Positions 1-57,983 of a stretch of DNA of 64,000 bases are shown here, piece after piece. Where the stretch lies: the NCBI GenBank assembly GCA_035575235.1, contig DATLYA010000005.1, forward strand, positions 369 through 64,368, written 5' to 3'. Position 1 is the stretch's first letter. Each line of letters begins with the position of its first letter. The position numbers were made by a program, and so were the translations under genes. Source of the stretch: Candidatus Methylomirabilota bacterium (lineage in GTDB: Bacteria > Desulfobacterota > Binatia > Bin18). The notes below the pieces were generated by a model. It searched no databases. It was not told where the DNA came from and worked only from the letters and a program-made list of their open reading frames with translations.

Positions 1-71
1 GCGGCTTTCGGACCGGCGTTGTCCCCCTCGCGCTCAGGCGCCACCTTCGGCGGTATCAGAGGAGGCAGAAC

Positions 72-308
72 ATGGAAAAACGAGTAGAGATCTATACAAG
101 CCTGACCTGAGCCCCGTGCCGGGCAGCGAAAGAGTTCCTTTCGCAAAAGGGCGTGCCATTTGTCGACTATAACGTGGTGGAGGACACTGAGGCCCGGGAG
201 CGACTGAAGCAATTGACCGGTCGCATGGCGACGCCAGTAATCACAGTTGACGATGAGATCATCGTGGGCTTCGATCGCGGCAAGCTGCAGCGCCTGCTTG
301 GTGTGTAG
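72..308 (+). CDS. Glutaredoxin-like (YruB/NrdH-type) selenoprotein; in-frame UGA 108-110 gives redox motif U-A-P-C
   Basis: ATG 72 after GAGGAGG RBS. Translation MEKRVEIYTSLT[U]APCRAAKEFLSQKGVPFVDYNV...TPVITVDDEIIVGFDRGKLQRLLGV, TAG stop 306-308. The UGA sits where the first Cys of the Grx CPxC motif belongs. Hairpin 126-144 downstream. Confidence 0.85.
126..144 (+). promoter_or_regulatory. Candidate SECIS hairpin for UGA 108-110
   Basis: Perfect 7-bp stem GCGAAAG/CTTTCGC with loop AGUUC, starting 15 nt after the UGA. Confidence 0.6.
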
Positions 309-318
309 GAGAGAGGCG

Positions 319-594
319 ATGCCATCCCTAAGCTGCCTTGGTTGCGGAGAAGAAGTTGATATCAGCGGCCTGAAAGAAGGTGACCGCTTTGAGTGCGCTC
401 ATTGTGCCGGCCTCATTCTTGAGCTTGTGCGCCAGGAGGGCGAACTCACCTTGCGGCAGGTCCATCAGGTGAGCTGTCCCCTGTGCAGCCATATGCTTGA
501 AGTACCAGAGTACGCCAAAGCAGGGGACGCCATGACCTGCTGCGGTCGGACATTCCGGCTCACATACGAGTTTGGCACCTACGCGCTGGAGTAA
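319..594 (+). CDS. Double zinc-ribbon protein (LysW-like CxxC...CxxC, twice)
   Basis: MPSLSCLGCGEEVD...FECAHCAGLILEL...VSCPLCSHMLEV...MTCCGRTF. ATG 319 lies 10 nt after the Grx stop. The longer track ORF (247..594) overlaps the Grx gene. Confidence 0.6.
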   Translation: MPSLSCLGCGEEVDISGLKEGDRFECAHCAGLILELVRQEGELTLRQVHQVSCPLCSHMLEVPEYAKAGDAMTCCGRTFRLTYEFGTYALE

Positions 595-781
595 ACAACC
601 TGACCACGGCGTGGGATACCTTTGCTTCCGCTCTTTTCATCGAAAAAGGGACGCCGGAGCTATTCTAGACCGCTTTGACGTTAGCGGCGCGACCAGCAGT
701 TTCCTCGGAGTCTCCGTCATCATGCCTTGGCCCCAGTGACCTCCTGCCTTTCCCGGCCGCTTTGCTTTCCCACCTCCCCTC

Positions 782-813
782 TTGACCTTCTCCTATACTG
801 GAAGGTGTAGCTT
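782..813 (+). promoter_or_regulatory. MerR/CueR-type promoter-operator (long-spacer promoter with dyad)
   Basis: TTGACC (782-787), about 20-bp spacer, TAGCTT (808-813). Dyad ACCTTC-N10-GAAGGT at 785-806 inside the spacer. It resembles the CueR box of E. coli PcopA as I recall it. Confidence 0.6.
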
Positions 814-834
814 AACGTTGTGGAGGTCGTACCT

Positions 835-1299
835 ATGGCCGAGATGTTCATTGGAGAACTGGCTGCCCAGCTCGGGCTCAATCCGCGCACGCTGCGCTAC
901 TATGAAAATCTCGGCTTGCTTCCAGCGCCCGGTCGCACCGTGCACGGCTATCGCGTGTACGGCGAGGAGACCGCTCAGCGGCTGGCCTTTATTGCCAAGG
1001 CCAAAAGCCTCGGGCTCACTCTGAAGGAGATCCGGCAGATTCTCGCTCTGCGCGACAGTGGGCGGCTCCCCTGCGCCTCGGTACAGCGGCTCCTGCAGGA
1101 GCATGTCGCCCGCATCGACCGCCAACTCGCCCACTTGCAGGCGCTGAAGGCAGACCTGACCACCCTGCTCGACGGCTGGCGGCCGGAGAGGCAGCGCAAC
1201 GGGCAGGTTGTGCCCGGCGCCATCTGCCCCCGTATCGAGGCCAGCGGTGCGACCCCAAGAAAGTGCAACGCCACCAGGAAAGGAGATGAACGTCCATGA
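835..1299 (+). CDS. MerR-family heavy-metal-responsive transcriptional regulator
   Basis: MAEMFIGELAAQLGLNPRTLRYYENLGLLPAP...GYRVYGEE HTH, then a coiled-coil dimerisation helix. Cys80 is at the position used by divalent-metal MerR sensors; C-terminal Cys residues are present. TGA stop overlaps the next ATG. Confidence 0.9.
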   Translation: MAEMFIGELAAQLGLNPRTLRYYENLGLLPAPGRTVHGYRVYGEETAQRLAFIAKAKSLGLTLKEIRQILALRDSGRLPCASVQRLLQEHVARIDRQLAHLQALKADLTTLLDGWRPERQRNGQVVPGAICPRIEASGATPRKCNATRKGDERP

Positions 1300-1463
1300 C
1301 CAAGACTGTCTCGCTCTGCCCAAACTGTGACGCCTGTCCGATGGTCGAAATCGACGATCAGGAGGTACGTATCGGTGAGGAAGGGAACCTCGTGAAGTTA
1401 ACTCTGGCCGAGTGGAACGTCCTCGTGCAGGCGATTAAAGCCGGCGAGCTCGACGAACTGTAA
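1296..1463 (+). CDS. Small Cys-rich protein (55 aa, CPNCDACP motif), translationally coupled to merR-like gene
   Basis: ATGA overlap with the regulator stop, AGGAG RBS at 1281-1285. MTKTVSLCPNCDACPMVEIDDQEVRIGEEGNLVKLTLAEWNVLVQAIKAGELDEL. Below the ORF-track size cutoff. Confidence 0.5.
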   Translation: MTKTVSLCPNCDACPMVEIDDQEVRIGEEGNLVKLTLAEWNVLVQAIKAGELDEL

Positions 1464-1530
1464 CCCCCAGTACCAGGTTAAATCGAACCACATGACATTC
1501 GTACACTTGACGATGTGACCATCCATGGTT

Positions 1531-1590
1531 GTCATTCTGAGCGTAGCGAAGAATCTGACTGTGAGACCCTTCGCTTCACTCAGGGTGACA
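1531..1590. repeat. Palindromic intergenic repeat (GTCATTCTGAGCG..GAAGAATC / ..CTCAGGGTGAC family)
   Basis: Imperfect inverted repeat. A related copy lies at 62306-62397, with cousins at 47794-47870 and 53178-53247. Confidence 0.6.
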
Positions 1591-1754
1591 TAGCTAGTGA
1601 GCCAATCTCCTGTGGACTAATTTAGACCTCACTACCCTGGCTCTTTCTGCAAAGAGGAAAGAACGCTCTTCCTCGCAATGGAGAAGGTCTGGGTGAGGGT
1701 TGTGCAAAGGAGAACGAAGGCGGGCGAACCCTCTTCAGGAAAAGAAGTGAAGCG

Positions 1755-2054
1755 ATGGCACTGAAAGTCGTAGGTGCAAAAATCTCCTGCATGATCGGGA
1801 CGCTGTTCGCCCTCCCCTGGTGATGACTGCTACCATGGATCTTCTCCCTGCTCGGGTCAGCAGGGGTCGGAGTCGCAGCAGTATGGGTCGGGAAATTCAC
1901 GCCGGTGTTTCTCGTGATTTCCCTCGCCTTCCTTGGGCGAGCCCACTACCTGCTCTACCGGCGGCAACACGGAAACCGGCTGAGCAGGACATTGGTGTGG
2001 TTCTCAACGGTTACCGCAGTAGCTCTGTGGGCCTATCGGTTTGGAGTCATGTAA
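1755..2054 (+). CDS. MerT-like small membrane protein with tandem selenocysteines (UGA-UGA 1821-1826) replacing the CC pair
   Basis: MALKVVGAKISCMIGTLFALPW[UU]LLPWIFSLLGSAGVGVAAVWVGKFTPVFLVISLAFLGRAHYLLYRR...; single open frame apart from the two TGA. Aligns to the Cys paralogue 25764-26103 (LLSTCCRGPTLYVLFGVSVGG...GLLGYAFHHLYIR) and to the MerT ACCLGPLVL motif. Confidence 0.75.
1846..1865 (+). promoter_or_regulatory. Candidate SECIS hairpin for UGA-UGA 1821-1826
   Basis: CCCTGC/GCAGGG 6-bp stem with loop UCGGGUCA, 19 nt after the second UGA. Confidence 0.45.
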
Positions 2055-2070
2055 CAAGGAGGCGTCACCC

Positions 2071-2421
2071 ATGGAAAAAACAAAGAGAGTGATAGGGCTG
2101 ATCGCGTGTCTGCTCCTCCTGTCAGGTTTGCCGCATCCCTTTGTGGCGCAGGCCGCAGCAGGAGAGCGGGTGAAAGTCCAAGTAGCGGGGATGGTGTGAC
2201 AGTTCTGAGCGTATAACGTCAAGGCGGCCGTGAGCCGCTTGGATTTTGCTCCCTCCATTAACGAGATGAAAGTGGACTTGGAGGCGGGGACGCTAGAGTT
2301 CACTGCCCGTGCAGGCACGCGCATTGATCAGGAAAAGTTGAAGAAGGCCATTGAGGATGCGGGGTATAAGGTGGAAGGGATAGAGATGACCACCACGAGA
2401 AACAACGAAGGCACGCCATGA
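2071..2421 (+). CDS. MerP-like periplasmic heavy-metal-associated (HMA) protein with UxxU metal site (UGA 2197-2199 and 2206-2208)
   Basis: AAGGAGG RBS and signal peptide MEKTKRVIGLIACLLLLSGL...AQA. ERVKVQVAGMV[U]QF[U]AYNVKAAVSRL...KLKKAIEDAGYKVEG matches the HMA GMxCxxC fold. The Cys paralogue at 26141-26419 has GMSCAMC. Confidence 0.85.
2222..2240 (+). promoter_or_regulatory. Candidate SECIS hairpin for UGA 2197/2206
   Basis: 7-bp stem AAGGCGG.C/GCCGCUU (one G-U pair) with loop CGUGA, 13 nt after the second UGA. Confidence 0.5.
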
Positions 2422-3383
2422 CTGCAGGAGCCTTCGTGACCACAGCGTTCGGGATGGCCTGGGCGACCTTGCACTATATCGTCTTTTACCGCTTTGCTAT
2501 CGGGTTTGCCTTCTTCTTCTCTGTGCTCCTCCAGTTCTTCTTCCCCGCTGAGAGGTGGCTGCAAGTTATCCGTAAACATTCAGGGCCTATACCGATTCTG
2601 GCTGCGGCCGGCTTGGGGCTCACAACGTCGCCGGGCCGTCAGGCAATAGAGAACAACTTTTTCCAGCTGGTAGCTGTGAAAGCTCCGCTGACCGCGCTGG
2701 TGGCATACTTGATCTGCAGCCACAATTTGACGGTCTACTATCTCCTAATGCTGGGGCCGCTGCTCGGCAAGGACGTGCTCTTCTCACACGTGCTTGGGGG
2801 CGTGATGGTTTTCATCACCGCCAGTCTCGGCCTCAGCCTTGTTTTTGGCAAGACTCATAAGCCTGGCAAGCTTGAGGCGAACGAGGACGCTGCCGTTGCC
2901 CAACCCACTGTGCGGCTGGAGAGGCTCGTTCGGGCAGTGGGCTCGGAGCTGTGGGCAACAGGTCCCCTAGTCCTTTACGGCCTGCTGCTCGGTGGTCTCA
3001 TTGCCGCGTGGGGACTTTCTCCCTGGCACGTTGTCCCAGTGACCCTTTTGGGGAGCGGTCTGACCGCGCAAGTCACCAACGCCGTCCTTGGGCTTGGAGT
3101 ATCTTTTCTGACCTGGATGAGCCCCGTCGCAAACCTCTTTGTTGGCACCTATATCTGGAAGGTGGGCATCGCTCATGCGGGGCTCGTGAGTTTTTTCTTT
3201 GCCAGCCTCGTCTCCTGGCCGCGGGTACGCCTGTACCAAAGAACCCTGGGAGATAGACAGGGTGCAGTTTTCGCCATTGTACTGGCTCTAGCGGCTCTCG
3301 CAGCGGGGCTCCTCGTGGCGCTCTTCTTTCACGTCACCGGCCTGTCTATCCACTACAAGCTCATTGCTCAGCAGATGCTGTAG
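2418..3383 (+). CDS. Polytopic inner-membrane permease (possibly COG0701/ArsP_1-like)
   Basis: ATGA overlap with the MerP-like stop. 321 aa, about 8-10 hydrophobic spans. The family call is from general resemblance only. Confidence 0.7.
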   Translation: MTAGAFVTTAFGMAWATLHYIVFYRFAIGFAFFFSVLLQFFFPAERWLQVIRKHSGPIPILAAAGLGLTTSPGRQAIENNFFQLVAVKAPLTALVAYLICSHNLTVYYLLMLGPLLGKDVLFSHVLGGVMVFITASLGLSLVFGKTHKPGKLEANEDAAVAQPTVRLERLVRAVGSELWATGPLVLYGLLLGGLIAAWGLSPWHVVPVTLLGSGLTAQVTNAVLGLGVSFLTWMSPVANLFVGTYIWKVGIAHAGLVSFFFASLVSWPRVRLYQRTLGDRQGAVFAIVLALAALAAGLLVALFFHVTGLSIHYKLIAQQML

Positions 3384-3394
3384 GAGGAGCGGTC

Positions 3395-4288
3395 ATGGCA
3401 AAGCGGCAGTTTGGCGTCACAGTGGTTGTTGCAATCCTCTTGCTCCTGGGTGGGAAAGAGAGCCCGGCCCTGCCTATCCGTACGACTGATCCGAATGTCG
3501 GCATCTTCTCTGGCTCAGCCGCTCTGGGTCGAGTGGAGTTCGCAGAGGCGTCGAGGCCAGGGGTAGACGTCTCCGCTACGATCGTGCCCACCATGTTCCT
3601 CTATAGTCCCACGACTTACAGCGCGTTTGGCATTGTCGCCCCCTACGTAGAAAAACGCCTGAATCTCAAAGGCAAGGGAGACGAATTCACCCAGGGGATT
3701 TCTGATATCATGCTTCTCGGTCGGTACAAATTCTTTAGCCTGCCACAGAAGCAGGCGTGGAATCAGGCAGCGTTTCAGCTCACGCTCAAGCTCCCCACAG
3801 GTCCGACCGACAGACGTATCAACCTTCCCGTGCCTCCATCGGTAAAGCGGGCGTTGCAGCCTGGAACGGGCTCGACCGATTTCATCTTTGAGTTCGCCGG
3901 TGGCAGGTTCACCACCCGTTACAACCTGCTGGCCAACATCGGCTATCGGCTGAACACCGAAGATGATGAGATCTCCTTTGGCGACCAATTTTTTGTGAAG
4001 ACGGACCTTGAATACTTCCTTTTTCCGTGGCTGACACGAAAACATGGCCAAGAAGTCATTAGCCTGCTCGAGTTCAGCTTTGTCCATGCTGAACGAGATC
4101 AATTCAAGGACAGAGGCGTGCCCAACAGCGGTGGCAACAGCTTCTTCCTTGCCCCCGGTCTTCAATGGATTGTGAGTGAGCGGTTCCTGGTGGAAACCTC
4201 GATCCAGCTTCCCCTATCTCAAGACTTGGCGGGTAAACAGCCTATGCTCGACCAGAGTGTGCTGGTTGGAGTTCGCTTTGTGTACTGA
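3395..4288 (+). CDS. Outer-membrane beta-barrel protein (MetA-pathway/transporter-like)
   Basis: AGGAGGAG RBS, signal peptide, alternating beta-strand pattern, C-terminal ...VGVRFVY aromatic terminus. Confidence 0.7.
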   Translation: MAKRQFGVTVVVAILLLLGGKESPALPIRTTDPNVGIFSGSAALGRVEFAEASRPGVDVSATIVPTMFLYSPTTYSAFGIVAPYVEKRLNLKGKGDEFTQGISDIMLLGRYKFFSLPQKQAWNQAAFQLTLKLPTGPTDRRINLPVPPSVKRALQPGTGSTDFIFEFAGGRFTTRYNLLANIGYRLNTEDDEISFGDQFFVKTDLEYFLFPWLTRKHGQEVISLLEFSFVHAERDQFKDRGVPNSGGNSFFLAPGLQWIVSERFLVETSIQLPLSQDLAGKQPMLDQSVLVGVRFVY

Positions 4289-4363
4289 CAGAAAGGACAC
4301 CCAACGGCTCTGCCGCACGCTACACGGTTTCGTGTTCACCCCCACAGATCGCGCCCTCGGTTA

Positions 4364-4660
4364 TCACTCCACTAACTCCGCCCACATGGCGCTATGGGCT
4401 GTCGCCTCACCAATCACCGCCGCCGCCAGGACGCCTTCATTTAGCAACGCGCGTGCAAGCGCCTCCGCCTCGCGTTCAGGCACGGCGATCAAAAGTCCAC
4501 CTGACGTTTGTGGATCAAACGCCACTTCGTTCAGATCCTGGGGGACGCGCGGATCGACGCGCACTTTATCCGCCACATACGTACGATTGCGCTTGCTACC
4601 TCCGGTGACGTACCCTTCCAACGCGAGCCGCAGAGCGCCAGGCAATAGAGGCAGCGCGGC
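4364..4660 (-). pseudogene. selD: 3' remnant of selenophosphate synthetase gene (about 98 C-terminal codons only)
   Basis: ...LPLLPGALRLALEGYVTGGSKRN...AFDPQTSGGLLIAVPEREAEALARALLNEGVLAAAVIGE matches the SelD C-terminus (LPG..GG..RN...DPQTSGGLL). Homology stops near 4660, where the opposite-strand AhpD-like ORF begins. Confidence 0.7.
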
Positions 4661-4663
4661 AGC

Positions 4664-5548
4664 ATGCTGCCAGATGCGGCGATAGATGCCATTCACCGAG
4701 TAGTGACAGATTCCGGCCGGCTCACGCAGTCCTGGTTTCAGCAGACGATGGCGTCTGGAGAAATCACTGATGCGCAGTATGTGGAGATTATCGATGTAGT
4801 GGTGACGGTGGTCAGCATCGACAGCTTTTGTCGCGGCATTGGGGTTCCGCTGCATCCACTCCCTGAACCACAAGAGGGAGAACCGTCGCGCTATCGCCCT
4901 GCGACAGCTCAACTACAGGAAGCCTGGGTGCCTATGATTCCGGTAGAGGGAGCGACCGGGGCCGAAGCTGACCTGTGGAATCCCACAGGGCGGGTCGGCA
5001 ACGTGATCCGCGCCTTAAGTTTGATTCCTGACGCGGTGCGTCAGCTCATGGACCTGAGCAACGCCCACTACGTGCCTCGTGATCGCTTGATGGATTTCAC
5101 GTGGAGCCGGTCGTTGTCGCGTGCGCAAATGGAACTGATCGCGGGTCGCGTCTCAGCGCTCCGGGGGTGTTTCTATTGAACGACCGCGCACGCAATGCTG
5201 CTCCGGGCGAGCGGCCAGGCGACCGGTCAAGCCTTCGACCTCCACGCAGTGACTGAGGGAACGACCACAGTGAGAAGCGGAGTAGCCCATGAAGAAACCC
5301 TCGTAGCATCGGCGGAAGCAATGGTTAGTGACGACGAGCAGGCGCTGGCAACCGCTCGTACACGCGTCCTCGAAGAATTGGGACCTGAGGCGCTGGTTGA
5401 TGCGGCTGGGGTAGCGTCGAACTTCGAGCGGATGGTCCGCATTGCCGATGCTACGGGCATTCCCTTGGACAGCTTTCTCGATGAGATGACTGTCGACCTG
5501 AGAACGGAGCTGCACTTGACCCGGTTTGAGTCCGTCACGAACGTCTAG
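4664..5548 (+). CDS. AhpD/CMD-family (alkylhydroperoxidase-like) selenoprotein, motif C-F-Y-U (UGA 5177-5179)
   Basis: Track ORFs 4664..5179 and 5195..5548 are in the same frame, separated only by TGA. ...RVSALRGCFY[U]TTAHAMLL matches the AhpD-family N-x-C-x-Y-C-x-x-x-H signature. The 5' end may be truncated at the selD junction. Confidence 0.8.
5197..5215 (+). promoter_or_regulatory. Candidate SECIS hairpin for UGA 5177-5179
   Basis: GCUGCUC/GAGCGGC 7-bp stem (one G-U) with loop CGGGC, 17 nt after the UGA. Confidence 0.5.
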
Positions 5549-5738
5549 GAGAGCAACTCTCCGCTGTGGCGCCTCCTCGTCATTGCATTTGCACGGTCGG
5601 AAGCATGGCTTGTGTTCGGATTGCACAGTGGTGACGGGGACGTTCCAAGAGGACTTCCAGACGGGAGGAGCAACTCGTCACCAGCAGCCTACCCACGAGG
5701 AGCATCGTGAAGAAGTATCAAGAAGAGAGGAGGAAGTG

Positions 5739-6116
5739 ATGCAGAAACGGGGAGTGAGCTTTTTTCTGACCATCGGCGCAATAACTGTGGTCTCTCTTGC
5801 CGGAGGAACTTGGGTCCACGCGCAACAACACGCGGTCGCCAGAGCGGCGATTTCGGAGTCGCCGCCGATTCCGCCTGATCAGATTCCACAGCATATCCGG
5901 GATGCAGTGAATGCAGCCGACCGTCCCGCAGCGGACAAGAGTCTCGACGCCGGACGCAAACCTGAGCAGATGCTGGCGTTTTTCGGGATTCAGTCAGGAA
6001 TGAACGTTGCGGACCTTTCCGCCGGCGGTGGATACACCACTGAGCTGCTCTCGCGCGCCGTCGGGCCGACCGGTACCGTGTATTCACAGAATCCTCCCTT
6101 TCCGCGTTCTTGTTAA
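5739..6116 (+). pseudogene. Exported class I SAM-dependent methyltransferase, apparently 3'-truncated
   Basis: GAGAGGAGGA RBS. MQKRGVSFFLTIGAITVV... signal, then DRPAADKSLDAGRKPEQMLAFFGIQSGMNVADLSAGGGYTTELLSRAVGPTGTVYSQNP. It stops about 125 aa in, and no continuation appears in any frame. Confidence 0.5.
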
Positions 6117-6592
6117 CAAGTAGGGGCAGTAGTGATCGTGCTATGGAGCAGAAGTGGAGACAAGGCCTGTTGCGGTTGCTCCTGCTAGGGCTGGTGATGT
6201 TCCACTCTGTTCTGGGAACAGGGAGTACGTCTATTCCGTCCTGTTCCACATGCGTACATACGCGCCATCGTGCCGGTGGCTGTGCGGGTCATCATCCCGG
6301 AGCCCATTGTCCGCTCACACTGCGCGAGCAGAAGAGAATTCCTGCTCTTTCGTGTGCGCTGAGTTGTCGCCATCATCATCGCTCTGCTGGCGTGCCTGCA
6401 GCAGGCGAATGGTTTCTGCTGTCCGGCAATATCAGGTTACCCCTTCCTCTTTTCTTGCGTTTTACAGGACCATTTTTCCACCCCGCCTCTCCTGATGGTT
6501 ATCCCACTTTGCTCTTCAGACCCCCTCCTCTCTTTCGTGTCTGATCCCAAATTTTTGCTTTTTTACTGACAGACCCCAGAGGATCATCCTCC

Positions 6593-7510
6593 GTGGAGGA
6601 AATGAGGAGGACTCGTATGCGTCACGCATGGATGTATGTCTTCGCCAGTATAAGTACGTGTTTCGCCACTGCGGCTGCCCACGCCCACGGCGCGGTAGGA
6701 AAGCGAGTATTTATTGAACCTTTTGTGACAGAAGACGCCAACCCTAAAAATGAGTTTGTCATTGCGAAACCTGGATTTTTTAACACTGACGAGGGCAACG
6801 TATTTTCGCTTGGTTTTGCGCTGGAAAAGAAGCTGTCAAACAACTTCAGCCTCACCTTGGAAGGCGAGTGGACCTCTGAACGGGCTGGCGGCCAGCCGCA
6901 TGTAGAGGGATTTCAAAACCCGGGAATCCTGCTCAAGTACAGTGTGTGGAAAGATCTGGCGCGAGAGTTCATCCTCTCGCCGGCTCTGGAAATTGAGTTC
7001 CCACTTGGTGATCGGGAAGTGGGGGCAGCAAGGGAGCTGATCGTCGCCCCCCTCCTCCTTTTTGCCCGGGGATTGGGCGACCTGCCGCAAAGTCTGTCGT
7101 ACCTCCACCCTCTCGCGCTGATGGGAGACATCGGGTTTGAGATCCTGACGAATGCGGAGACCGAAACCGTCCTCAAATATGACATCCTGCTGATGTACAG
7201 CCTTCCCTATCTTCGCGCTCACGTTCGTGAGCTTGACGCTCCGTGGCCGTTCACTCGGCTTATCCCCTTGGTGGAGTTCAACTTTGAAACCGGGGTGAAT
7301 GGAGAAGCTCGCCTAACCAAGGCTCGGCTGACTCCCGGCGTGGTATACCAGGGGCAGTTCGTGCAACTTGGTGTAGCTGGGCAATTTCCCCTCAATCGTA
7401 CGACCGCTCGAGAGTTAGATCCCAGCCTCCTGTTCCTGGTAGATCTCTTCTACGACGATCTCTTTCCCGCACTCGCCCAAACGTCGTGGGGCACGGGGAG
7501 TAAGGAGTAA
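6593..7510 (+). CDS. Putative outer-membrane/exported beta-rich protein
   Basis: Signal-like N-terminus (MRHAWMYVFASISTCFATAAAHA) and amphipathic beta pattern. Start is uncertain (6593, 6602 or 6617). Confidence 0.55.
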   Translation: MEEMRRTRMRHAWMYVFASISTCFATAAAHAHGAVGKRVFIEPFVTEDANPKNEFVIAKPGFFNTDEGNVFSLGFALEKKLSNNFSLTLEGEWTSERAGGQPHVEGFQNPGILLKYSVWKDLAREFILSPALEIEFPLGDREVGAARELIVAPLLLFARGLGDLPQSLSYLHPLALMGDIGFEILTNAETETVLKYDILLMYSLPYLRAHVRELDAPWPFTRLIPLVEFNFETGVNGEARLTKARLTPGVVYQGQFVQLGVAGQFPLNRTTARELDPSLLFLVDLFYDDLFPALAQTSWGTGSKE

Positions 7511-7662
7511 CAAAAAAGAAGAACAGCACGTGCGCGTGCTCCCCCAAGGGTTCGCGTTGTACGCAGGGGTGCTCCGTATCTGCCGGCTCAATCTATAACT
7601 CTTGAGAAGAGAGGCGGTAACCTTTCTCATGGCGATTCCGTCTGTATTCTGGAGGAGGCGTC

Positions 7663-8259
7663 ATGGAGACGAAAGACGAGCTGACCCCTTTGTATGCAGA
7701 GTTTGGCCCTCGCATCTACAGCTACCTGCGACGCCTCACGCAAGATGCCGCGTTAGCGGAAGAGCTGACGCAAGACACGTTTCTCCGCGCGCTCGAACAT
7801 CTCCAGACCTTTCGCGGTGACGGGTCGGTGTCCAATTGGCTCTACCGCATCGCGACCAATCTCTTCCGTGACTATTTGCGCGCCCACAAAGGCAAAGGAC
7901 AACCATCGTGGGAAAACGGAGAAGACGCTGAAGGAACAGAAGATATGCTTGCGCGAATTCCTGACCCTGCCCCTCCGCTTCCTCAAGTTCTTGAACAGCA
8001 AGCGGTCACCCAGTGTGTCCGCGACTGTATTGCTTCGCTGCCCGCACCCTATCGGGCTGCGCTGTTACTGTATGCCGTCGAAGGGAAAACCGTAGAAGAG
8101 AGCGTCGCCATCCTCGGCTGCAGCAAAGAGGCGATTAAGGTTCGCCTCCATCGTGCTCGTCAGTTGTTCAAGGCGTTAGCATCGGAACGCTGTGAGATCT
8201 CCGCGGAGCGTGGCGGCGAGGTGAGTTGTGTACTCAAAGGGCCAGGCAAGGAGGTATGA
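7663..8259 (+). CDS. ECF (sigma-70 group 4) RNA polymerase sigma factor
   Basis: Region 2 (ELTQDTFLRALEHLQTFRGDGSVSNWLYRIATNLFRDYLR) and region 4 (YRAALLLYAVEGKTVEESVAILGCSKEAIKVRLHRARQ). Confidence 0.9.
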   Translation: METKDELTPLYAEFGPRIYSYLRRLTQDAALAEELTQDTFLRALEHLQTFRGDGSVSNWLYRIATNLFRDYLRAHKGKGQPSWENGEDAEGTEDMLARIPDPAPPLPQVLEQQAVTQCVRDCIASLPAPYRAALLLYAVEGKTVEESVAILGCSKEAIKVRLHRARQLFKALASERCEISAERGGEVSCVLKGPGKEV

Positions 8260-12006: not shown

Positions 12007-13574
12007 TCAACGGGTCCAGGCGAGCCATTTGCTGAACAGCCGCTTCACAAACGGTGTCAGCCGTGTGCGGTTGAATTGATCGCCTAGTTTACGGATGGCC
12101 TCGGCGTGGGTCGGATAGGGGTGAATCGTGCCGCCAATCTTCTTCAGCCCGAGGCCGTGTGTGATCGCCAACGACAGTTCAGAGATCATATCGCCCGCGT
12201 GACGCGCGACAATGGTTGCACCCACGATAGTGTCTGTTCCTTTCTTCACGTGCACTTTGACGAAACCGTCCTCATCGCCGTCTAACACCGCGCGGTCGAC
12301 ATCGCGGAACTCCTGGACGAACGTGTCAACGTCGATCCCCTTTTCTTTCGCTTGGCCTTCGTACAGCCCCACATGGGCGATTTCGGGCGAGGTGTAGGTA
12401 CACCAGGGCATCCCAGCGAGGTGGACTTCTTGCGGCCTTTGAAGAGGGCATTGTGAATCACGATGCGCGCCATAAAATCGGCGGCATGGGTAAACTGGTA
12501 GGGTGAACAAATATCGCCCGCGGCGTAAATCCGGGGGTTTGTCGTCTGCAGGCGGTCGTTGACCTTCACGCCTTTCTTGTCGTACTCCACCCCCACCGCT
12601 GCCAGATTCAGATGTTCGACATTTGGCGCTCGGCCAACAGATACCAACAGTTGGTCGAGCGGCTCATCGTAGCTCTGCCCATGCGAGTCAACCGTGAGTC
12701 GAATGCCGCGCTCGTTTTTGATCGTCAAGTTTTGCCCGCAACAGAGGAGCGTGACGCCGTCTCGTGTGATCGCCCGTTGCACGACCTCCGCTGCGTCACG
12801 GTCTTCGCGCGGCAGGATGCCGTGTTCCGCCTCGACCAGAAACACTTCAGACCCCAGCTGCGCGAACGCCTGCGCCATCTCGCAACCGATCGGCCCGGCG
12901 CCAATGACGCCGAGTCGTCGGGGAAGCTCGGTCAGCGAGAATATTGTTTCGTTGGTCAGATAGTCCACTGAGTCCAAACCAGGAATCGGCGGCGCCGCGG
13001 CGCGCGCGCCGGTCGCGATCACGGCCTGCTTGAAGTTGAGCCGCGTCCCGTCCACCTCAACGGTGCTGGAATCTACAAACTGCGCCTGCCCGAAATAGAC
13101 GTCAACGCCAAGATCGCGGAATCGTTGCGCCGCATCATTCCGGCTGATACGGGCTCGCAACCGTCGCATCCGTTGCATGACGGCGGCAAAGTCCACCTTC
13201 ACCCCGGTTGACACTTCGACACCGAACTCGCGAGCAATGCCCACGGCTGCCGCGACGCGGGCGGCACTAATAACACCCTTCGACGGTACGCAGCCAACGT
13301 TCAGGCAGTCGCCGCCCATCAGGCTGTGCTCGATCAGCGCGACCTTGGCGCCCAGGCCAGCGGCTCCGGCTGCCGTCACCAACCCAGCAGTGCCAGCGCC
13401 GATGACAACCAGATTGTAGCGCCCACTTGGTTGCGGATTCACCCAGTCCAAGGGATGAATGTTACGAACCAGTTCCTGATTGAACTCGTCCGCCGGACTG
13501 GTTTGCGGTAAGTGCTCAATCACCGGCTGATCGACAAGATGCAGGCGTTTTTTCTGAATCACGGACTCCCCCAT
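12007..13574 (-). pseudogene. FAD-dependent pyridine nucleotide-disulfide oxidoreductase (mercuric-reductase/dihydrolipoamide-dehydrogenase family), frameshifted near 12408-12420
   Basis: GAGTAGLVTAAGAAGLGAKVALIE, redox-active CLNVGCVPSK, second GxGxxG. The C-terminal interface domain (IPWCTYTSPEIAHVGL...THPYPTHAE) continues in another frame (track ORFs 12282..13574 and 12007..12510). Confidence 0.85.
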
Positions 13575-13835: not shown

Positions 13836-14133
13836 GTCCACGCTCCATACTTCTGAGAGCAGCAACTAGCGCAAGAGTTCCCCGAACCTGTCTTTAGCTC
13901 TCTTCTCTTTTTCCCACCTACCGACGTTCGCCCCAGCAATGATCAACTGCCCGGCGCTCTACGTGCATCGCGGCGCGTGTACGCGTGTCGGCAGACTTTT
14001 TCAGGGGAACCTTTGGGCGCCCGTGAGCGTTTATTCTCAAGCTCAAGGGGGGAAATGTGTTTGTGGGAACTTCTGCAGGCGATGAAGAGTTTTCTCTACA
14101 AAAGCCAAGCAGCCCGAGAGAAAGGAGGAGACT

Positions 14134-14715
14134 ATGACCTGGGTAAAAACTTTTGCTGAGCATGAGGCCAGCGGACGACTGGCCGAGGTATATGCCGAGT
14201 TAATGAAACACCCACTCGGTGGGGGTCGGGTACCCAACATCATGAAGTGCATGAGCCTGCGACCGGAAGCCCTCCTCGGCGTCTGGCGCCTCAACATGGG
14301 CATCACCTTTGGCGCCTCAACCCTTGGACGGGTGCGGGAGGAGATGATCGCTACTGCGGTCTCTGCCCTCAACCACTGCCATTATTGAACGAATTCCCAC
14401 GCAGAGTTTCTGCGTATGGAGACCGGAAACCACACTTTAGTGAAACATCTCAAGACCGACCCCACTAATGCTCCACTGGCGCCGCCAGACAAGGCCATGA
14501 TCGACTTCGCCCTCAAGCTCACACGCGAGCCCTGGACCGTCAAACAGGCAGATGTCGAGGGTCTCCAGCAGCACGGCTTCAGCGAAGAGCAGGTAGTAGA
14601 TATCGTGCTGATCACCTGCACCTTTAACTTTATGGATCGCCTGGCCGATGGCCTGGGGGTGGAGCTCGATCCTAGGATGCAACGGCTAGTAGAAATGAAT
14701 GCAGACAAGAGCTAG
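14134..14715 (+). CDS. AhpD/CMD-family peroxidase-related selenoprotein, motif C-H-Y-U (UGA 14386-14388)
   Basis: Track ORFs 14134..14388 and 14416..14715 share a frame. ...TAVSALNHCHY[U]TNSHAEFLR... matches S..N.C.YC...H. Strong RBS (AAAGGAGGAG). Confidence 0.85.
14399..14415 (+). promoter_or_regulatory. Candidate SECIS hairpin for UGA 14386-14388
   Basis: ACGCAG/CUGCGU perfect 6-bp stem with loop AGUUU, 10 nt after the UGA. Confidence 0.55.
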
Positions 14716-18817: not shown

Positions 18818-19768
18818 CTATTGCATTGCAGCCCGCCTCCGGCCTTTCCGTAAGATAGCGTCTATATCGCCCCATCCCCCTTGTCCCAGCACAGCAACGG
18901 GATTGGCAACCTTTCCTTGCCCGATAAGTTTGGCGATCGGAGACGGTTCAGGCGGATGGATATCAACCACGGTCGGGTCCTCCGGCCACTCAAAGGGGAG
19001 ATGCACGACGCCGCCGGGCTCTTGAATGTCGATCAACGCCTGCAGTGCGGCGCGAATCACTTGTAGTTGCCCTTCTCGATCGCCTGGCCGCCCGAGAGTG
19101 AGACCGAAGGGGTATTCCAGCGCCGCCACGCGGGGAAAACCATAGGCGCGGCTGTAATCCGGGATCATGTTGACGCAGATCGTCGATATTCCTGCTTCTT
19201 CGATCACACGTTGCACCAGTCCAACGGACCGGCAGCAGATGGGTCACACTGGCACAAGAAACGCCACCTCCACGCCTTCCGCATTCATCTGGGTGGCAAT
19301 CCGTGGAGCAGTGGCGCATACCAGATCCGTGGGATCGGTGTTGTACCCCATAATGGAGTAATGGGTGGGAGCCAGTTCACCGATTTCGCCTGACTGCGCC
19401 AACTCCTGAAAGCGTTGGAGCGGAAGCGCAACATCCAGGTCTTGATAGATGTACTCCGTCTTAATGTGGATGTGATTGACCGCGATATCCTTCTCCGTCG
19501 CCCAGCTGGGGAGCCTGCGGAAACTGGGATCGCCCCAGTACGGGTTCTGGCGTTCCCGCTCCATATTGAACGGCGGATCTGAGGTGAGTGAAATCCCCGC
19601 CGTGGTCAGGAGCGCCACACGACACGTCGAGAGTGGCTTCTTCAGAGGGGTCCAGGGAATCCAGTCATATTGCGGCTCTTGGGGAATAGCCTGGCGCATG
19701 ATCTTCGCTGCTGGTCCGGAAAACCGGTAGCTGTCCACCACCTTTCCTTCGACAATGATTGCCGGCAT
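18818..19768 (-). CDS. GrdB/PrdB-family (glycine/sarcosine/betaine reductase component B-like) selenoprotein, U-P-I-C (UGA at 19244-19246)
   Basis: Track ORFs 19244..19768 and 18818..19216 share a frame. ...VALLTTAG...ALPLQRFQELAQSGEIGELAPTHYSIMG...VEVAFLVPV[U]PICCRSVGLVQRVIEEAGISTICV parallels GrdB ...TST-U-GTCTRCGATMVKEIE.AGIP. Confidence 0.8.
19216..19232 (-). promoter_or_regulatory. Candidate SECIS hairpin for UGA 19244-19246
   Basis: CCGGUCC-GUU-GGACUGG (7 bp, one G-U), 11 nt after the UGA. The identical 17-mer at identical spacing occurs in the paralogue at 57704-57720. Confidence 0.55.
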
Positions 19769-24690: not shown

Positions 24691-25101
24691 ATGAATGGAC
24701 AGACCATTGGCGCTGTCGCGAAGCAAGCGAGCGTGCATGTGGAAACACCGCGCTACTACGAGCGGCGCGGTCTCGTGGCGCGCCCCCTGCGCAGTGTGGC
24801 AAACTACCGCCTGTATCCTGAGGAGACGGCACAGCGCGTGCGTTTTATCAAACACGCACAGGCCCTCGGCTTCTCCTTAAAAGAAATCAAGGAACTCCTT
24901 GCTCTGCGAGCGGCGCCGCGCGCCCAGTGCGCAGACGTTCGTGTCCGCGCTGAAACGAAAATCATAGCTATCGAGGCAAAAATCCGCGCCCTGCTAGCAA
25001 TGAAAAAAGCGCTCACCCGGTTGGTGGTCGAGTGTGCAGGGCGTGGTCCCATTACCGACTGCCCCATTCTTGAGGCGTTGGATACGGAGGAGGAGACATG
25101 A
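24691..25101 (+). CDS. merR: MerR-family regulator, Hg(II)-sensor-like Cys triad
   Basis: HTH ...TIGAVAKQASVHVETPRYYERRGLV; Cys in QCADV (about residue 80) and in ECAGRGPITDCPILEAL (C-x8-CP), as in MerR. Confidence 0.85.
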   Translation: MNGQTIGAVAKQASVHVETPRYYERRGLVARPLRSVANYRLYPEETAQRVRFIKHAQALGFSLKEIKELLALRAAPRAQCADVRVRAETKIIAIEAKIRALLAMKKALTRLVVECAGRGPITDCPILEALDTEEET

Positions 25102-25444: not shown

Positions 25445-25714
25445 ATGACTACGAAACGACACATTGAAATCTTCAGCGCCGGATGCCCAGCCTGCGAGGA
25501 GACCATCACGCTCGTCAAGCGTGTAGCGTGTTCATCGTGCGAAGTCACCGTTCTCGATATGACAGACCCAGCAGTGTCGAGCCGAGCGAAGAACTTAGAC
25601 ATTCGTTCAGTACCAGCCGTGGTTATTGACGGGCGCCTGGCGGACTGCTGTGTCGCACGAGGACCGGATGAGGCAACACTCCGCGCCGCCGGATTAGGGC
25701 GACCACTACCGTGA
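25445..25714 (+). CDS. Thioredoxin_3/glutaredoxin-like small redox protein (CPAC)
   Basis: HIEIFSAGCPACEETITLVKRV...VPAVVIDGRL. Confidence 0.8.
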   Translation: MTTKRHIEIFSAGCPACEETITLVKRVACSSCEVTVLDMTDPAVSSRAKNLDIRSVPAVVIDGRLADCCVARGPDEATLRAAGLGRPLP

Positions 25715-25763: not shown

Positions 25764-26103
25764 ATGCGTAAAGAAGCCATTAGCAGTTTAAGCTCACTGG
25801 TTCCAGCGTTTTTGCTCAGCACTTGTTGCCGAGGGCCAACGCTGTACGTGCTGTTCGGGGTCAGCGTGGGGGGGGCTCAGCCTCTTTACTCCGCTCGAAC
25901 CGTACCGCCCGGCGTTTATGCTGGCGGCGGTGGGGCTGCTTGGCTACGCCTTTCATCATCTGTATATCCGCCCGCCGCAGTTTGACTGCGTAGAGAATGG
26001 GCGCTCGGCCCTGCGAACCAGCCGCATCGTGTTCTGGATCGCCAGCCTGGTCTTTGTCGTGGCCGCGCTTTACCCGGTGGTGTTGCCTCATTTCGTGTCC
26101 TGA
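25764..26103 (+). pseudogene. merT: MerT mercuric-ion transport protein (Cys form), frameshifted in a G8 tract (25868-25875)
   Basis: MRKEAISSLSSLVPAFLLSTCCRGPTLYVLFGVSVGG / LSLFTPLEPYRPAFMLAAVGLLGY...IVFWIASLVFVVAALYPVVLPHF. LEPYRP and the C-terminal helix match Tn501 MerT. With G7 the frame would be continuous. Confidence 0.75.
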
Positions 26104-26140
26104 AAAAGTCCGAAAGAAAGCTCAGAAAAGAGAATCGTCG

Positions 26141-26419
26141 ATGCAGAAGCAACAGTGGATGACACTCATAGGAGCTCTTGCCCTCGCTTTAAGCACGACA
26201 GCGTGGGCCGGGGAACGGACGGTGAATCTCAAAGTAGACGGCATGTCGTGCGCCATGTGTGCGCCAGCCGCCCGCAAAGCGCTAGAGAAAGTTGATGGCG
26301 TGCAGGCGGCGAAGGTGGAAGGTGACCGGGCGACGGTGGTGGCTGACGAAAAGGTGCAGGACACTGACCTCGTCAAAGCGATTGAAGGGGCAGGCTTCTC
26401 AGCAACCGTGGAGAATTGA
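26141..26419 (+). CDS. merP: MerP-like periplasmic HMA metal-binding protein (Cys form, GMSCAMC)
   Basis: Signal peptide, then TVNLKVDGMSCAMCAPAARKALEKVDGV...AIEGAGFSATVEN. Confidence 0.85.
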   Translation: MQKQQWMTLIGALALALSTTAWAGERTVNLKVDGMSCAMCAPAARKALEKVDGVQAAKVEGDRATVVADEKVQDTDLVKAIEGAGFSATVEN

Positions 26420-29097: not shown

Positions 29098-29340
29098 CGA
29101 TTCCTATCTCTCTTGATCGACCATGAAGACTCCTGTTGAAACACCTTTGTGGCTGTGTCCATCGCAAAGAGAAGAGAGAGCGTCGAAATCGTGGAACAAA
29201 AGTCTCTGGAACTTTAGCCGGTACAGTAAGGTTACTGAAAAAATGACGTAGGCGTGCTGTCCGCAAGAGAGCTGTGAACGTGCCAACGTTTTCGGACAGA
29301 CCACACGTACGGAACTCAGTACAGTATTGAGGAGACAAAC

Positions 29341-30585
29341 ATGGAACCTTTCGCTATCGGATTGTATCTCGTCGGCGTTCTCCTGCTCGCGCTAACCTTT
29401 TTCCCTTTCTCCCCTATGACGCTCAAGTTCTGGATGCCGAAGCGCGAGACCATGCTCTTTGCTCATCAGCATCGCGTACTGCTCCGCGGACTTGGGAGCC
29501 TGAGCGTAGCAATCACTTTTTTTCTCGCCATGACGGGGGATGTCGCAACCGAGTGGGGTTGGGTTGCTGGGCTGACTGGAGTGTTTTTCCTCGCTTTTTG
29601 GTGGGGGGGCTATGTCCCGGTCATCATGGGCTCTCCCCAGGACCAGCAACTGCTCAGCGCTGAACAAGCTGAGACCATTCTGAAACCCCAAGACGATGTG
29701 TTAGGCGTGGTGCTGGATGGTGAGGCGCATGCGTATCCGCGGATGGCCATCACTAGGCCACATCTTTATCATGACACGATCGGCGGCATTCCCATCACCG
29801 TAACATATTGCATCCTGTGTAACTCGGGGGTTGCCTTACGGGCAGAGCTTGAAGGACAACCACTCTCTCTCCACCCTATCACCGCCTTCAATAACAACAT
29901 TATCTACTACGATGCTCAGAGTGGAAATTACATCCAACAGTTGGAAGGAGACGTTATTGCTGGCCCAGCAAAGGGAAAACGGCTCGCGACGCTGCCCACC
30001 ACCTTGACCACATGGCGGACCTGGAAAGAACTGTACCCACGGACTCGGGTGCTTTTTGCCCCAGAAACAAAACTGCGCGATCGTATGTTGACGAACATGC
30101 TGCACTGGATGATGCCGCTTGCTGGACTGATGCAACGTCGCACCCCTTGGCATCCATTAAATGTAAATGGTAATCGAGACGAACGGCTGCCAGCGATGAC
30201 TCCGATCTTTGGCGTAGAGGTGAAAAGGGAAAGAAAAGCCTATCCCCTCTCGTTGTTGCGCAACCGCAAGGTTGTAAACGATGCACTGGATGGTGTTCCT
30301 ATCGTGATACTCTACGATCCGGCGCGTGATACGGGAGGTGTCTTTACACGGGAAGTCGATGGCCGAGTCCTCACATTCCGCGCCTTTGCGAACGGGGTCT
30401 CTCAGATCGTAGCGATGGATGAAGAAACACGAAGCTTGTGGGATGTGAGAGGAAAAGCCTGCGAAGGAGTCTCAGCAGGCACAGGCTTGTCCCCGGTTCC
30501 TCACTTTGGGAAAGTATTTTGGTTTAGTTGGGCCACATTTCGACCGGGGACGAGACTCGAAACAGAGGTCGCCGGTGGACATTAA
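29341..30585 (+). CDS. DUF3179 domain protein (Cys form, TYCILCNSG) with N-terminal TM region
   Basis: ...GEAHAYPRMAITRPHLYHDTIGGIPITVTYCILCNSGVAL...TLTTWRTWKELYP. Serves as the Cys reference for the two Sec paralogues. Confidence 0.85.
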   Translation: MEPFAIGLYLVGVLLLALTFFPFSPMTLKFWMPKRETMLFAHQHRVLLRGLGSLSVAITFFLAMTGDVATEWGWVAGLTGVFFLAFWWGGYVPVIMGSPQDQQLLSAEQAETILKPQDDVLGVVLDGEAHAYPRMAITRPHLYHDTIGGIPITVTYCILCNSGVALRAELEGQPLSLHPITAFNNNIIYYDAQSGNYIQQLEGDVIAGPAKGKRLATLPTTLTTWRTWKELYPRTRVLFAPETKLRDRMLTNMLHWMMPLAGLMQRRTPWHPLNVNGNRDERLPAMTPIFGVEVKRERKAYPLSLLRNRKVVNDALDGVPIVILYDPARDTGGVFTREVDGRVLTFRAFANGVSQIVAMDEETRSLWDVRGKACEGVSAGTGLSPVPHFGKVFWFSWATFRPGTRLETEVAGGH

Positions 30586-57020: not shown

Positions 57021-57176
57021 GAGCTCTGCTCCTCTCTAGAGAAACCGCCCTACCGTAAGAAAAGTTTCCTCTCGCGTTTTCTCACAGAATGGAAACTTTT
57101 CGCTGGGTCCTCTGGTTAGAGTATGTACCTTTCTATAGTCTGCTGTTCTGGGAATGGCGTATACACCGGAGGACCC

Positions 57177-57983
57177 ATGGAGCTGCATCGCTGGCGGACT
57201 CAACTCATCGCGTTGTTCTTTAGCCGGTTTCCGACATTAACCGCGCGCTGGGTGAAAAAACAACAACTCGATGAGTATGGACCTCCCCCCTGGAGCCCAG
57301 TAACGAAACCGGTGACGCAATGTCGAGTGGCTTTGGTCACCACCGCCGGTGTGCATCGCAAAGAGGACACCCCGTTCAATATGGAGGATAGACAGGGAGA
57401 TCCTACGTATCGCGTCATCCCGCGAGATATCCCCCGCGAAGATTTATGCATCACGCATGATTACTATGATCATCGTGATGCTGACAAAGACTTGAACATC
57501 GTCCTCCCGTTAGATCGTCTACAGGAGCTCGTGCAAGAGCGCATCGTCGGTGAAGTGGCGCCGTTTCACTATAGTTTTATGGGTCATATCGACGGACCGC
57601 ATGTGTCGCGCCTGCTGGCCGACACCGCGCCATCCGTGGCCCGGCGCCTCAAGCGCGAACAGGTTGATGCGGTTGTGTTGACCCCTGCATGAGGGCTGTG
57701 TAACCGGTCCGTTGGACTGGTCGCACGGACAATCGAGCAGCATGGCGTTCCCACGGTAGCGCTTAGTATTCAACGGGAATTGACGGAAAAGACCCGTCCA
57801 CCGCGCGCGCTCTTTGTGCGCTGGCCGTATGGGCATCCGTTAGGAGAACCTTTCAATGTGGCGCAACAGCGCTGGGTGTTGCGCGACGCCTTAAAAGCGC
57901 TGGAAGAGATTCACACACCCGGCGTCATCATCGACCTGCCCTATCTCTGGCGTCGTCCGGGGCCGTGGGCTACAAAAAAATGA
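57177..57983 (+). CDS. GrdB/PrdB-family selenoprotein paralogue, U-G-L-C (UGA 57690-57692)
   Basis: Track ORFs 57123..57692 and 57780..57983 share a frame. ...RVALVTTAG...LPLDRLQELVQERIVGEVAPFHYSFMG...VDAVVLTPA[U]GLCNRSVGLVARTIEQHGVPTVAL. Start ATG 57177 after CGGAGGA. Confidence 0.8.
57704..57720 (+). promoter_or_regulatory. Candidate SECIS hairpin for UGA 57690-57692
   Basis: CCGGUCC-GUU-GGACUGG, 11 nt after the UGA. Identical to the element at 19216-19232. Confidence 0.55.

Follow-up and report, generated by a model that had tools for sequence, protein, structure and literature searches.

The window analysed here is a 64,000-nt stretch of a Candidatus Methylomirabilota bacterium genome (contig DATLYA010000005.1, positions 369 to 64,368), and it carries a small MerT-like membrane protein gene whose frame is interrupted by two adjacent UGA codons. 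Judged by comparison with its relatives, UGA-UGA most likely encodes a genuine pair of selenocysteines (Sec-Sec, UU in one-letter code) replacing the metal-binding Cys-Cys pair found in those relatives. We give a probability of about 75% to the full statement that the gene is functional, that both UGAs are read as Sec and that one selenocysteine insertion sequence (SECIS) serves them. The 99-codon frame on the forward strand runs from ATG 1755 to TAA 2052-2054 and is interrupted solely by TGA 1821-1823 and TGA 1824-1826, at codons 23 and 24, just as an initial annotation of this DNA had described it. The translation of 1755-2054 reads MALKVVGAKISCMIGTLFALPW before the two UGAs and LLPWIFSLLGSAGVGVAAVWVGKFTPVFLVISLAFLGRAHYLLYRRQHGNRLSRTLVWFSTVTAVALWAYRFGVM after them.

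1755-2054, forward strand: gene for a putative MerT-like three-helix membrane selenoprotein, 99 codons, MALKVVGAKISCMIGTLFALPW-U-U-LLPWIFSLLG...
1821-1823, forward strand: UGA1, codon 23; first Cys column of the CC pair, occupied by Cys in CU forms and by Asn or Thr in the Planctomycetota single-Sec forms
1824-1826, forward strand: UGA2, codon 24; Cys/Sec column, invariant family-wide
1846-1865, forward strand: SECIS-like hairpin, with 5' arm CCCUGCU (1846-1852), loop CGGGUC (1853-1858) and 3' arm AGCAGGG (1859-1865)

When the two U residues of the query were changed to C, homology search returned a full-length Cys homologue, P0003 (...VVLPWCCLMPAVLSLVG...), and two proteins that start just past the UGA site. 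The contigs of these two proteins, L001 and L002, read TGT-TGA and TGC-TGA (Cys-Sec), respectively, within an otherwise continuous frame. Protein-guided scans of genomes and metagenomes enlarged the homologue set by four groups: L010, with TGA-TGA; L004, in a metagenome-assembled genome labelled Verrucomicrobiales, which has TGA-TGA and is 68% identical downstream of the site; loci of Planctomycetota that read AAC-TGA (Asn-Sec); and Nitrospirales and other loci with TGY-TGY (Cys-Cys). Labels of such assemblies, for example "Alcaligenaceae" and "Verrucomicrobiales", may stem from binning errors. A profile search yielded 236 matches. Among the best 120, 31 were full-length PWCC proteins (LPW-CC-LxP), 83 were fragments of ~68 aa that start at or just before "LSLLGLAG", directly 3' of the Sec site, as would be expected of gene callers that stop at a UGA, and none carried an informative protein name. 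Homologues with Cys or Sec at the UGA columns, which the initial annotation had proposed to look for, are abundant, and the states CC, CU, UU and [N/T]U all occur; the CU forms within the family comprise L001, L002, L024, L025, L039, L041 and L042. The second position of the pair is invariantly Cys or Sec across homologues, and conservation of the N-terminal part extends over UU, CU and CC forms. Since the CC homologues run through both halves as uninterrupted open reading frames (ORFs), the 22 codons before the site and the sequence after it belong to a single gene, which answers the doubt raised in the initial annotation that they might be unrelated.

The tandem UGA recurs in other genomes. 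The DNA pattern TGATGA-N19-CCCTGCTCGGGTNAGC has 21 specified bases, so that chance alone should yield ~0.3 matches over the ~1.2e12 positions of the genome collection, and it matched nine GTDB genome contigs, L004 included. All nine matches lie in frame in homologous genes of ~100 codons that read "...SLPW-UU-I[IL]...", with one PP-UU. In a protein-level scan made without hairpin input, with only the part downstream of the site (pattern ...FW[TSM]W), the same eight Planctomycetota-type UU loci were found again, along with two new loci. In one of these, L028, the exact hairpin accompanies both a single-Sec paralogue and a variant with U-AIT-U; the other, L035, has Cys and may be degraded, and drift has turned its hairpin codons into CTA GGT CTA. 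A more general pattern, with a single TGA before the hairpin, picked up ~36 genes of the family along with 9 matches due to chance, and the site states in this set were NU (12), TU (~11), CU (4; Acidobacteriota, Blastocatellia and Latescibacterota) and UU (9).

In a neighbour-joining tree, all UU genes of Planctomycetota group together in a clade sister to the single-Sec clade, and the window gene is placed as (window-UU, (L004-UU, (L001-CU, L002-CU))). As UU is present in two separate clades, it arose at least twice, and within the window clade it persists over ~32% protein divergence. L010 is a separately assembled contig and is 100% identical to window positions 1228-2881, TGA-TGA included. 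When the comparison was extended to 946-2881, all 63 nucleotide differences fell within the upstream merR gene (993-1227) and the other 1.65 kb were identical. We therefore rejected the reading of L010 as a diverged strain; it is treated as a replicate assembly and does not count towards the persistence of UU in evolution. The clustering of its differences in merR suggests recombination or strain mosaicism at the regulator.

The hairpin described in the initial annotation, at 1846-1865, coincides exactly with a core that is conserved in the family (stem CCCUGCU/AGCAGGG, loop CGGGUC). It has a 7-bp stem, or 8 bp with U1845-G1866, and a 6-nt loop, and lies 19 nt from UGA2 and 22 nt from UGA1. 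All Sec forms have in common (U/G)CC-CUG-CUC-GGG-U(U/C)A-GC(A/G)-GGG, which starts 19 nt past the second UGA. To compare codon use at the hairpin with that elsewhere in the gene, we took the share of identical amino acids for which the codon was identical too. Among 24 Sec forms, codon identity was 86.6% within the hairpin and 43.2% in the rest of the gene, and for pairs of Sec forms below 50% amino acid identity the values were 84.4% and 39.3%, whereas five Cys forms exhibited no excess (45.9% at the hairpin versus 42.5% elsewhere). The Cys forms L003, L005, L006, L013, L014 and L035 deviate at several hairpin positions. In the Sec forms, whose genomes are GC-rich, the loop invariably has UUA, a rare codon for Leu. 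RNAalifold returned the 7-bp hairpin as the sole structure, with 98% of stem cells paired and a U-A/U-G alternation at one pair; no conserved lower stem reaching the UGAs was found by RNAalifold or by pair counting. The isolated hairpin has a folding energy of -14.2 kcal/mol (z=-2.0), and minimum free energies of 60-nt segments were uninformative (z -1.8 to +0.6). The hairpin is under RNA-level constraint, and, as a SECIS should, it forms a stem-loop 3' of the UGAs with a G in its apical loop, is conserved in the Sec forms and is lost in the Cys forms.

The protein is a remote relative of MerT. NCBIfam merT_RC607 (NF033560) matched residues 16-96 with E=5.2e-9 (36.4 bits against a cutoff of 130), and Pfam MerT (PF02411) gave 13.1 bits against a cutoff of 32.9 (E=0.1). 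The Planctomycetota and Acidobacteria forms scored 24-40 bits against MerT models. The Cys paralogue to which the initial annotation had aligned the gene is present in a second mer-like locus of the window, with the CC motif, and matches Pfam MerT once two overlapping ORFs are joined.

25764-26103, forward strand: bona fide MerT (CC) of the second mer-like locus; Pfam MerT E=2.6e-15 after the frameshift is repaired
24691-25101: MerR, neighbour in the same locus
25445-25714: Trx_3 protein, neighbour in the same locus
26140-26419: MerP, neighbour in the same locus

The frameshift in this paralogue lies at a G-run at ~25869-25876 and could be a homopolymer sequencing error or the mark of a pseudogene. 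BLASTP of the MerT-like protein against it gave E=0.001, and hhalign of the family profile against it gave a probability of 78.5% (E=1.7e-5) with CC placed on CC, so the alignment to MerT claimed earlier is real though remote. Among PDB sequences, the family profile had no meaningful match, MerF included, and NCBIfam release 20 holds no model that captures the MerT-like UU family. A vicinal pair followed by Pro (CCxxP) is found as LPW-UU-LLP in the window and as LPW-CC-LxP in the 31 full-length homologues. An AlphaFold2 model of P0011, the closest full-length CC homologue, has helices at residues 14-36, 39-76 and 81-101 with PWCC inside helix 1; the three transmembrane (TM) helices predicted in this way within ~100-116 aa are supportive only. 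The bona fide MerT of the window has a C...C in its cytoplasmic loop, and Tn501 MerT has its second Cys pair, C76/C82, in that loop.

The use of Sec by the organism is implied by the other selenoprotein genes of the window, one of which matches a curated family.

72-308, forward strand: glutaredoxin-like gene, in-frame TGA 108-110, T-U-APC (UxxC); Pfam Glutaredoxin 3.7e-17
2071-2421, forward strand: secreted HMA/MerP-like partner, GMV-U-QF-U, TGA 2197-2199 and 2206-2208; Pfam HMA E=9.6e-10
2222-2240, forward strand: hairpin AGGCGGC-CGUGA-GCCGCUU, single and downstream of both HMA UGAs, with spacers of 13 nt and 22 nt
4664-5548, forward strand: AhpD-related selenoprotein, TGA 5177-5179, C-F-Y-U-T; NCBIfam AhpD_rel_CFYUT, 397 bits (cutoff 175)
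~14086-14712, forward strand: second CxxU AhpD-like candidate (HCHY-U), TGA 14386; read-through candidate
~18818-19768, reverse strand: UxxC candidate, TGA 19246; read-through candidate
~57123-57980, forward strand: UxxC candidate, TGA 57690; read-through candidate
4364-4600, reverse strand: SelD-like C-terminal remnant of ~70 residues (...DPQTSGGLLIAVPEREAEALARAL...), without the N-terminal part; weak AIRS_C match

The glutaredoxin-like gene scored just below cutoff with NCBIfam GlrX_YruB (84 bits) and Uxx_star (62 bits), and its hairpin, GCGAAAG-AGUUC-CUUUCGC, lies 15 nt past the UGA. The spacers between UGA and stem in the window are 15 nt for the glutaredoxin-like gene, 17 nt for the AhpD-related gene, 13 and 22 nt for the HMA gene, and 18-19 and 21-22 nt for the MerT-like gene, so that with a range of 13-22 nt both tandem UGAs fall within spacing already used there. 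The initial annotation had considered one hairpin for two adjacent Sec codons mechanistically unusual: the single conserved downstream hairpin holds, and the word "unusual" should be softened, since the HMA gene also has one hairpin for UGAs that are 9 nt apart. ARAGORN detected no tRNA or tRNA-Sec in the 64-kb window. As to the individual genes, the AhpD_rel_CFYUT match begins at model position 66 of 357, and the true start may lie upstream of 4664. The two UxxC candidates (VPV-U-PICC and TPA-U-GLCN) are paralogous, with similar downstream sequences and a GrdB/PrdB-like look. The SelD-like fragment looks like a selD remnant adjoining the metal locus.

The gene lies in a locus with the order MerR, small Cys-rich ORF, MerT-like UU protein, HMA UxxU protein, ArsP_1 permease and outer-membrane Phenol_MetA_deg barrel.

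782-813, forward strand: candidate MerR-type promoter/operator, TTGACC, 20-nt spacer with the dyad ACCTTC-N10-GAAGGT, TAGCTT, from direct reading
835-1299, forward strand: MerR-family regulator; Pfam MerR_1 1e-19, MerR-DNA-bind 2e-19; TGA stop
1296-1463, forward strand: small Cys-rich protein (CPNCDACP); only a weak Usp-48 match
2418-3383, forward strand: ArsP_1-type predicted permease, start overlapping the HMA stop; Pfam PF03773 E=4e-14
3395-4288, forward strand: outer-membrane beta-barrel, Phenol_MetA_deg family; Pfam E=5e-6

The linkage to MerR and HMA genes is seen in the window and in L001, L024 and L025. The UxxU of the HMA partner is kept in L001 and L002, and the partner in L004 has C-GF-U. 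In L001 an ArsP_1-type permease likewise follows the HMA gene, and in the Acidobacteria loci L024 and L025 the CU homologues stand amid the same components with Phenol_MetA_deg adjoining. The element at 782-813, upstream of merR, may be a MerR-type promoter, as inferred from its sequence; a sigma-70 promoter scan with 16-18-nt spacers found nothing, this element included. No MerA is encoded in 1-8000, and the only Pyr_redox_2 protein (12282-13574) is 10 kb off and has no dimerisation-domain match.

In three Planctomycetota loci (L017, L018 and L023), single-Sec and UU paralogues of the MerT-like gene are adjacent, and the gene immediately before them, for a protein with a signal peptide, likewise contains TGA-TGA in frame. 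Its motifs are ...HMS-UU-GGVARD... and ...EMP-UU-GGLVRD..., and it has its own hairpin, AGUGGCG-CGGGA-CGCCACU, 5 nt downstream. The protein has no Pfam or NCBIfam match and may represent a second tandem-Sec family.

L017, ~5838: secreted UU protein
L018, reverse strand, ~3358 (reverse-complement coordinate): secreted UU protein
L023, ~3210: secreted UU protein

With UU in a second operon protein, tandem Sec is not peculiar to one gene.

The main residual rival of the Sec-Sec reading, which we regard as unlikely, is that only UGA2 encodes Sec, while UGA1 is read otherwise (near-cognate Trp or Cys, Cys-tRNA-Sec, hopping) or mostly terminates as a selenium-dependent attenuator. UGA2 does have the 19-nt spacing of all single-Sec forms, and relatives with Cys, Asn or Thr in the first column show that the fold can do without Sec at that position. 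Moreover, if the efficiencies known from E. coli hold, two UGAs in tandem would be expected to be recoded inefficiently (PMC4513850). However, the first-position TGA is kept over the ~32% protein divergence of the window clade and across the Planctomycetota clade, and if Trp or Cys were intended, either would be reachable by one mutation (TGG or TGY) and decoded far more efficiently. The HMA neighbour shows that a 22-nt spacer is tolerated, and the second operon protein retains UU as well. It could also be asked whether the first TGA stems from faulty sequencing or assembly, or whether a CU-type gene recently became a pseudogene through a TGY-to-TGA nonsense mutation, given that the closest relatives L001 and L002 are one base away and that the bona fide MerT paralogue of the window has an apparent frameshift. 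The comparative sequences effectively refute this and leave it very improbable: TGA-TGA is identical in the separately assembled L010, and L004 and eight Planctomycetota-type genes have it with downstream frames and hairpins intact.

Because gene callers split the gene, and most of the best profile matches are N-terminally truncated (83 of 120), it might be taken for a 22-codon peptide with a tandem stop and a separate, unrelated downstream ORF. This is refuted, and hardly any weight is left to it, as continuous CC homologues cover both parts with LPW-CC-LxP in one helix, no in-frame start codon lies between 1827 and GTG 1905, and the N-terminal part is conserved across the UU, CU and CC forms. 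The several in-frame TGAs of the window would also suit a genome-wide reassignment of UGA, for instance to Trp or Gly. This is likewise refuted, with a probability close to nil, by ordinary TGA stops at the ends of the merR (1297-1299), HMA (2419-2421) and outer-membrane (4286-4288) genes; furthermore, the in-frame TGAs sit at redox or metal motifs aligned with Cys and have hairpins after them, and one belongs to the curated 397-bit selenoprotein family.

Several points weigh against the Sec-Sec reading itself. The assignment of Sec to both codons comes from comparative inference, and selA, selB, selC and an intact selD are absent from the 64-kb window. RNAalifold and pair counting found no compensatory double changes in the stem, so that the RNA-level support consists of conservation and synonymous-site suppression; part of the codon conservation could be due to the strongly conserved SLLG(L/S)AG peptide, although drift is seen in Cys forms whose peptides are similar. 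Rfam gave no SECIS match at the gathering threshold in the whole window or at E<=10 in 1-2500, and the loop is ~10 nt farther from the UGA than in E. coli fdhF. UGA recoding in E. coli has an efficiency of ~30-40% per event (PMC4513850), and if the organism were similar, the full-length yield would be low, at ~10-15%. With respect to the protein, neither the Pfam nor the NCBIfam cutoff for MerT is reached, although the homology signal is still significant. The AlphaFold2 model of P0011 has moderate confidence (pLDDT 67.6, pTM 0.32) and is too uncertain for a fold search, and the loop after helix 2 (YRRQHGNRLSR) has no cytoplasmic Cys pair.

In the mechanism that we propose for the Sec-Sec pair, the vicinal Cys-Cys of TM helix 1 (consensus LPW-CC-LxP) would be replaced by Sec-Sec in a small three-helix inner-membrane protein, and a SelB/tRNA-Sec system would recode both UGAs via the single hairpin at 1846-1865. 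SelB-GTP-Sec-tRNA on the hairpin would decode UGA1, after which the ribosome would advance 3 nt. With 19 nt between the A-site codon and the stem, the hairpin should stay folded, and a second ternary complex would load on the same hairpin and decode UGA2. We lean towards the broader view that the SelB/SECIS machinery of several phyla natively decodes two consecutive UGAs from one hairpin, which would give Sec-Sec in the MerT-like protein and, in Planctomycetota, also in the secreted partner. The diselenol pair would then take a thiophilic metal from a secreted UxxU, CxxU or UU partner by ligand exchange, and the metal would be passed across or along the membrane under MerR-type control, by analogy with MerT/MerP. 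In Tn501 and Tn21, Cys pairs hand the metal from MerP to MerT.

Compared with canonical MerT (Tn501/Tn21; PF02411, NF010314) and Bacillus RC607 MerT (NF033560), the predicted protein is alike in its length of ~100-116 aa, its three TM helices, its TM1 vicinal pair followed by Pro (CC-LGP in MerT, UU-LLP in the window), its basic cytoplasmic loop after TM2 and its position beside genes for MerR and a periplasmic HMA protein. It differs in scoring below the family cutoffs, in having Sec for Cys, in lacking the loop Cys pair and an adjacent merA, and in having an ArsP-type permease and an outer-membrane barrel as neighbours. Haft (bioRxiv 10.1101/2022.07.06.499078) noted that a few MerT-related proteins are CU-motif selenoproteins, for example WP_250634603.1, which may belong to the same subfamily as the window protein. 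A selenoprotein entry named "putative mercuric transport protein", ABB16073.1, has one Sec (PMC9312934), and its motif is given as C/SxxU (PMC13188914). These known selenoproteins resemble the window protein in being small membrane proteins related to MerT, with Sec located at the vicinal-Cys metal site or close to it, but in the literature searched those with CU or C/SxxU are described with one Sec, whereas both residues of the window pair would be Sec.

Double selenoproteins of the UxxU kind, which include the metal-binding (seleno)protein NF041115, Prx-like UxxU, FmdB UxxU and TsoB UxxxxU (PMC13188914 Table 1) and to which the HMA gene of the window belongs, also have two close UGAs in a metal-binding or redox motif and necessarily one SECIS or overlapping ones. 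Their UGAs are 2-4 codons apart, while those of the window gene are adjacent, with no elongation cycle between them. The E. coli fdhF SECIS depends critically on loop G23/U24, and its essential stem-loop is separated from the UGA by 11 nt (PMC8659212). The window hairpin is similar in lying inside the coding sequence just 3' of the UGA and in having GGU in its loop (CGGGUY), but its stem is 19-22 nt from the UGA, it has no evident bulged U, and there are two UGAs per hairpin. A May 2026 inventory of 119 prokaryotic selenoprotein families or subfamilies contains UxxU, UxxxxU and CU, with a maximum of 2-3 Sec per protein and no UU. Curators, at least, are thus already aware of the family and of its CU state. 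Adjacent Sec-Sec, its recurrence and its association with a single hairpin appear to be undescribed in the literature searched, whose coverage is incomplete and in which tandem, adjacent or consecutive UGA or Sec was met only in eukaryotic, viral or irrelevant accounts and not in bacteria.

Sec insertion in bacteria usually involves one hairpin and one adjacent UGA, and termination competes each time. A conserved UGA-UGA with one hairpin would mean that the same SECIS is used twice within one translocation step, which would constrain models of SelB release and reloading and of the timing of SECIS unwinding by the ribosome. If true, this would be natural back-to-back Sec insertion in bacteria, with a potential vicinal diselenide or ultra-high-affinity soft-metal site and a basis for a selenolate-to-selenolate metal relay, and it would offer a natural template for engineered Sec-Sec (diselenide) sites that leaves EF-Tu unrewired. 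A TM-helix diselenol that receives metal from a periplasmic partner with UxxU or UU suggests an all-selenolate metal-handling pathway, which would be relevant to Hg-Se antagonism and to the metal resistance of uncultured bacteria from soil and sediment. Most family members are at present wrongly annotated, appearing as truncated hypothetical proteins of ~68 aa, and are not covered by any NCBIfam or Pfam model.

Some further observations concern the surroundings of these genes. In the 290-nt gap between the small Cys-rich ORF and the MerT-like gene there is an imperfect inverted repeat at 1530-1590 with 30-nt arms (TGTCATTCTGAGCGTAGCGAAGAATCTGAC / GTGAGACCCTTCGCTTCACTCAGGGTGACA), which may be an element of the repetitive extragenic palindromic type or a terminator. 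Elsewhere in the window, a DUF3179 protein is encoded at 29341-30585 on the forward strand (Pfam 4e-58), DUF3179 being a listed selenoprotein family (UxxC/T). An in-frame TGA (L-U-TCQ) occurs at 29275, 66 nt upstream of this gene, with only 12 open codons before it, and an N-terminal Sec extension is uncertain. A sigma-54 regulator gave no taxonomic placement, since its matches with a named source, in Binatia, Nitrospirota and Planctomycetota, reach only ~50%. In L023, proteins with B12-binding radical SAM and DUF169 matches in Pfam are encoded at 772-3083, upstream of the Sec-gene cluster, and ORFs at 4971-7307 on the reverse strand of L018 have N-termini closely similar to these L023 proteins, which hints at a larger conserved system. 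In L028 (Gemmatales; ~2890-3230 and ~160-1300), the U-AIT-U variant of the UU gene extends the closely spaced double-UGA pattern of the HMA gene and ends in three consecutive TGAs, and the single-Sec paralogue has a long C-terminal extension (GMKLVLIPAGKFQMGSP...) that suggests a gene fusion.

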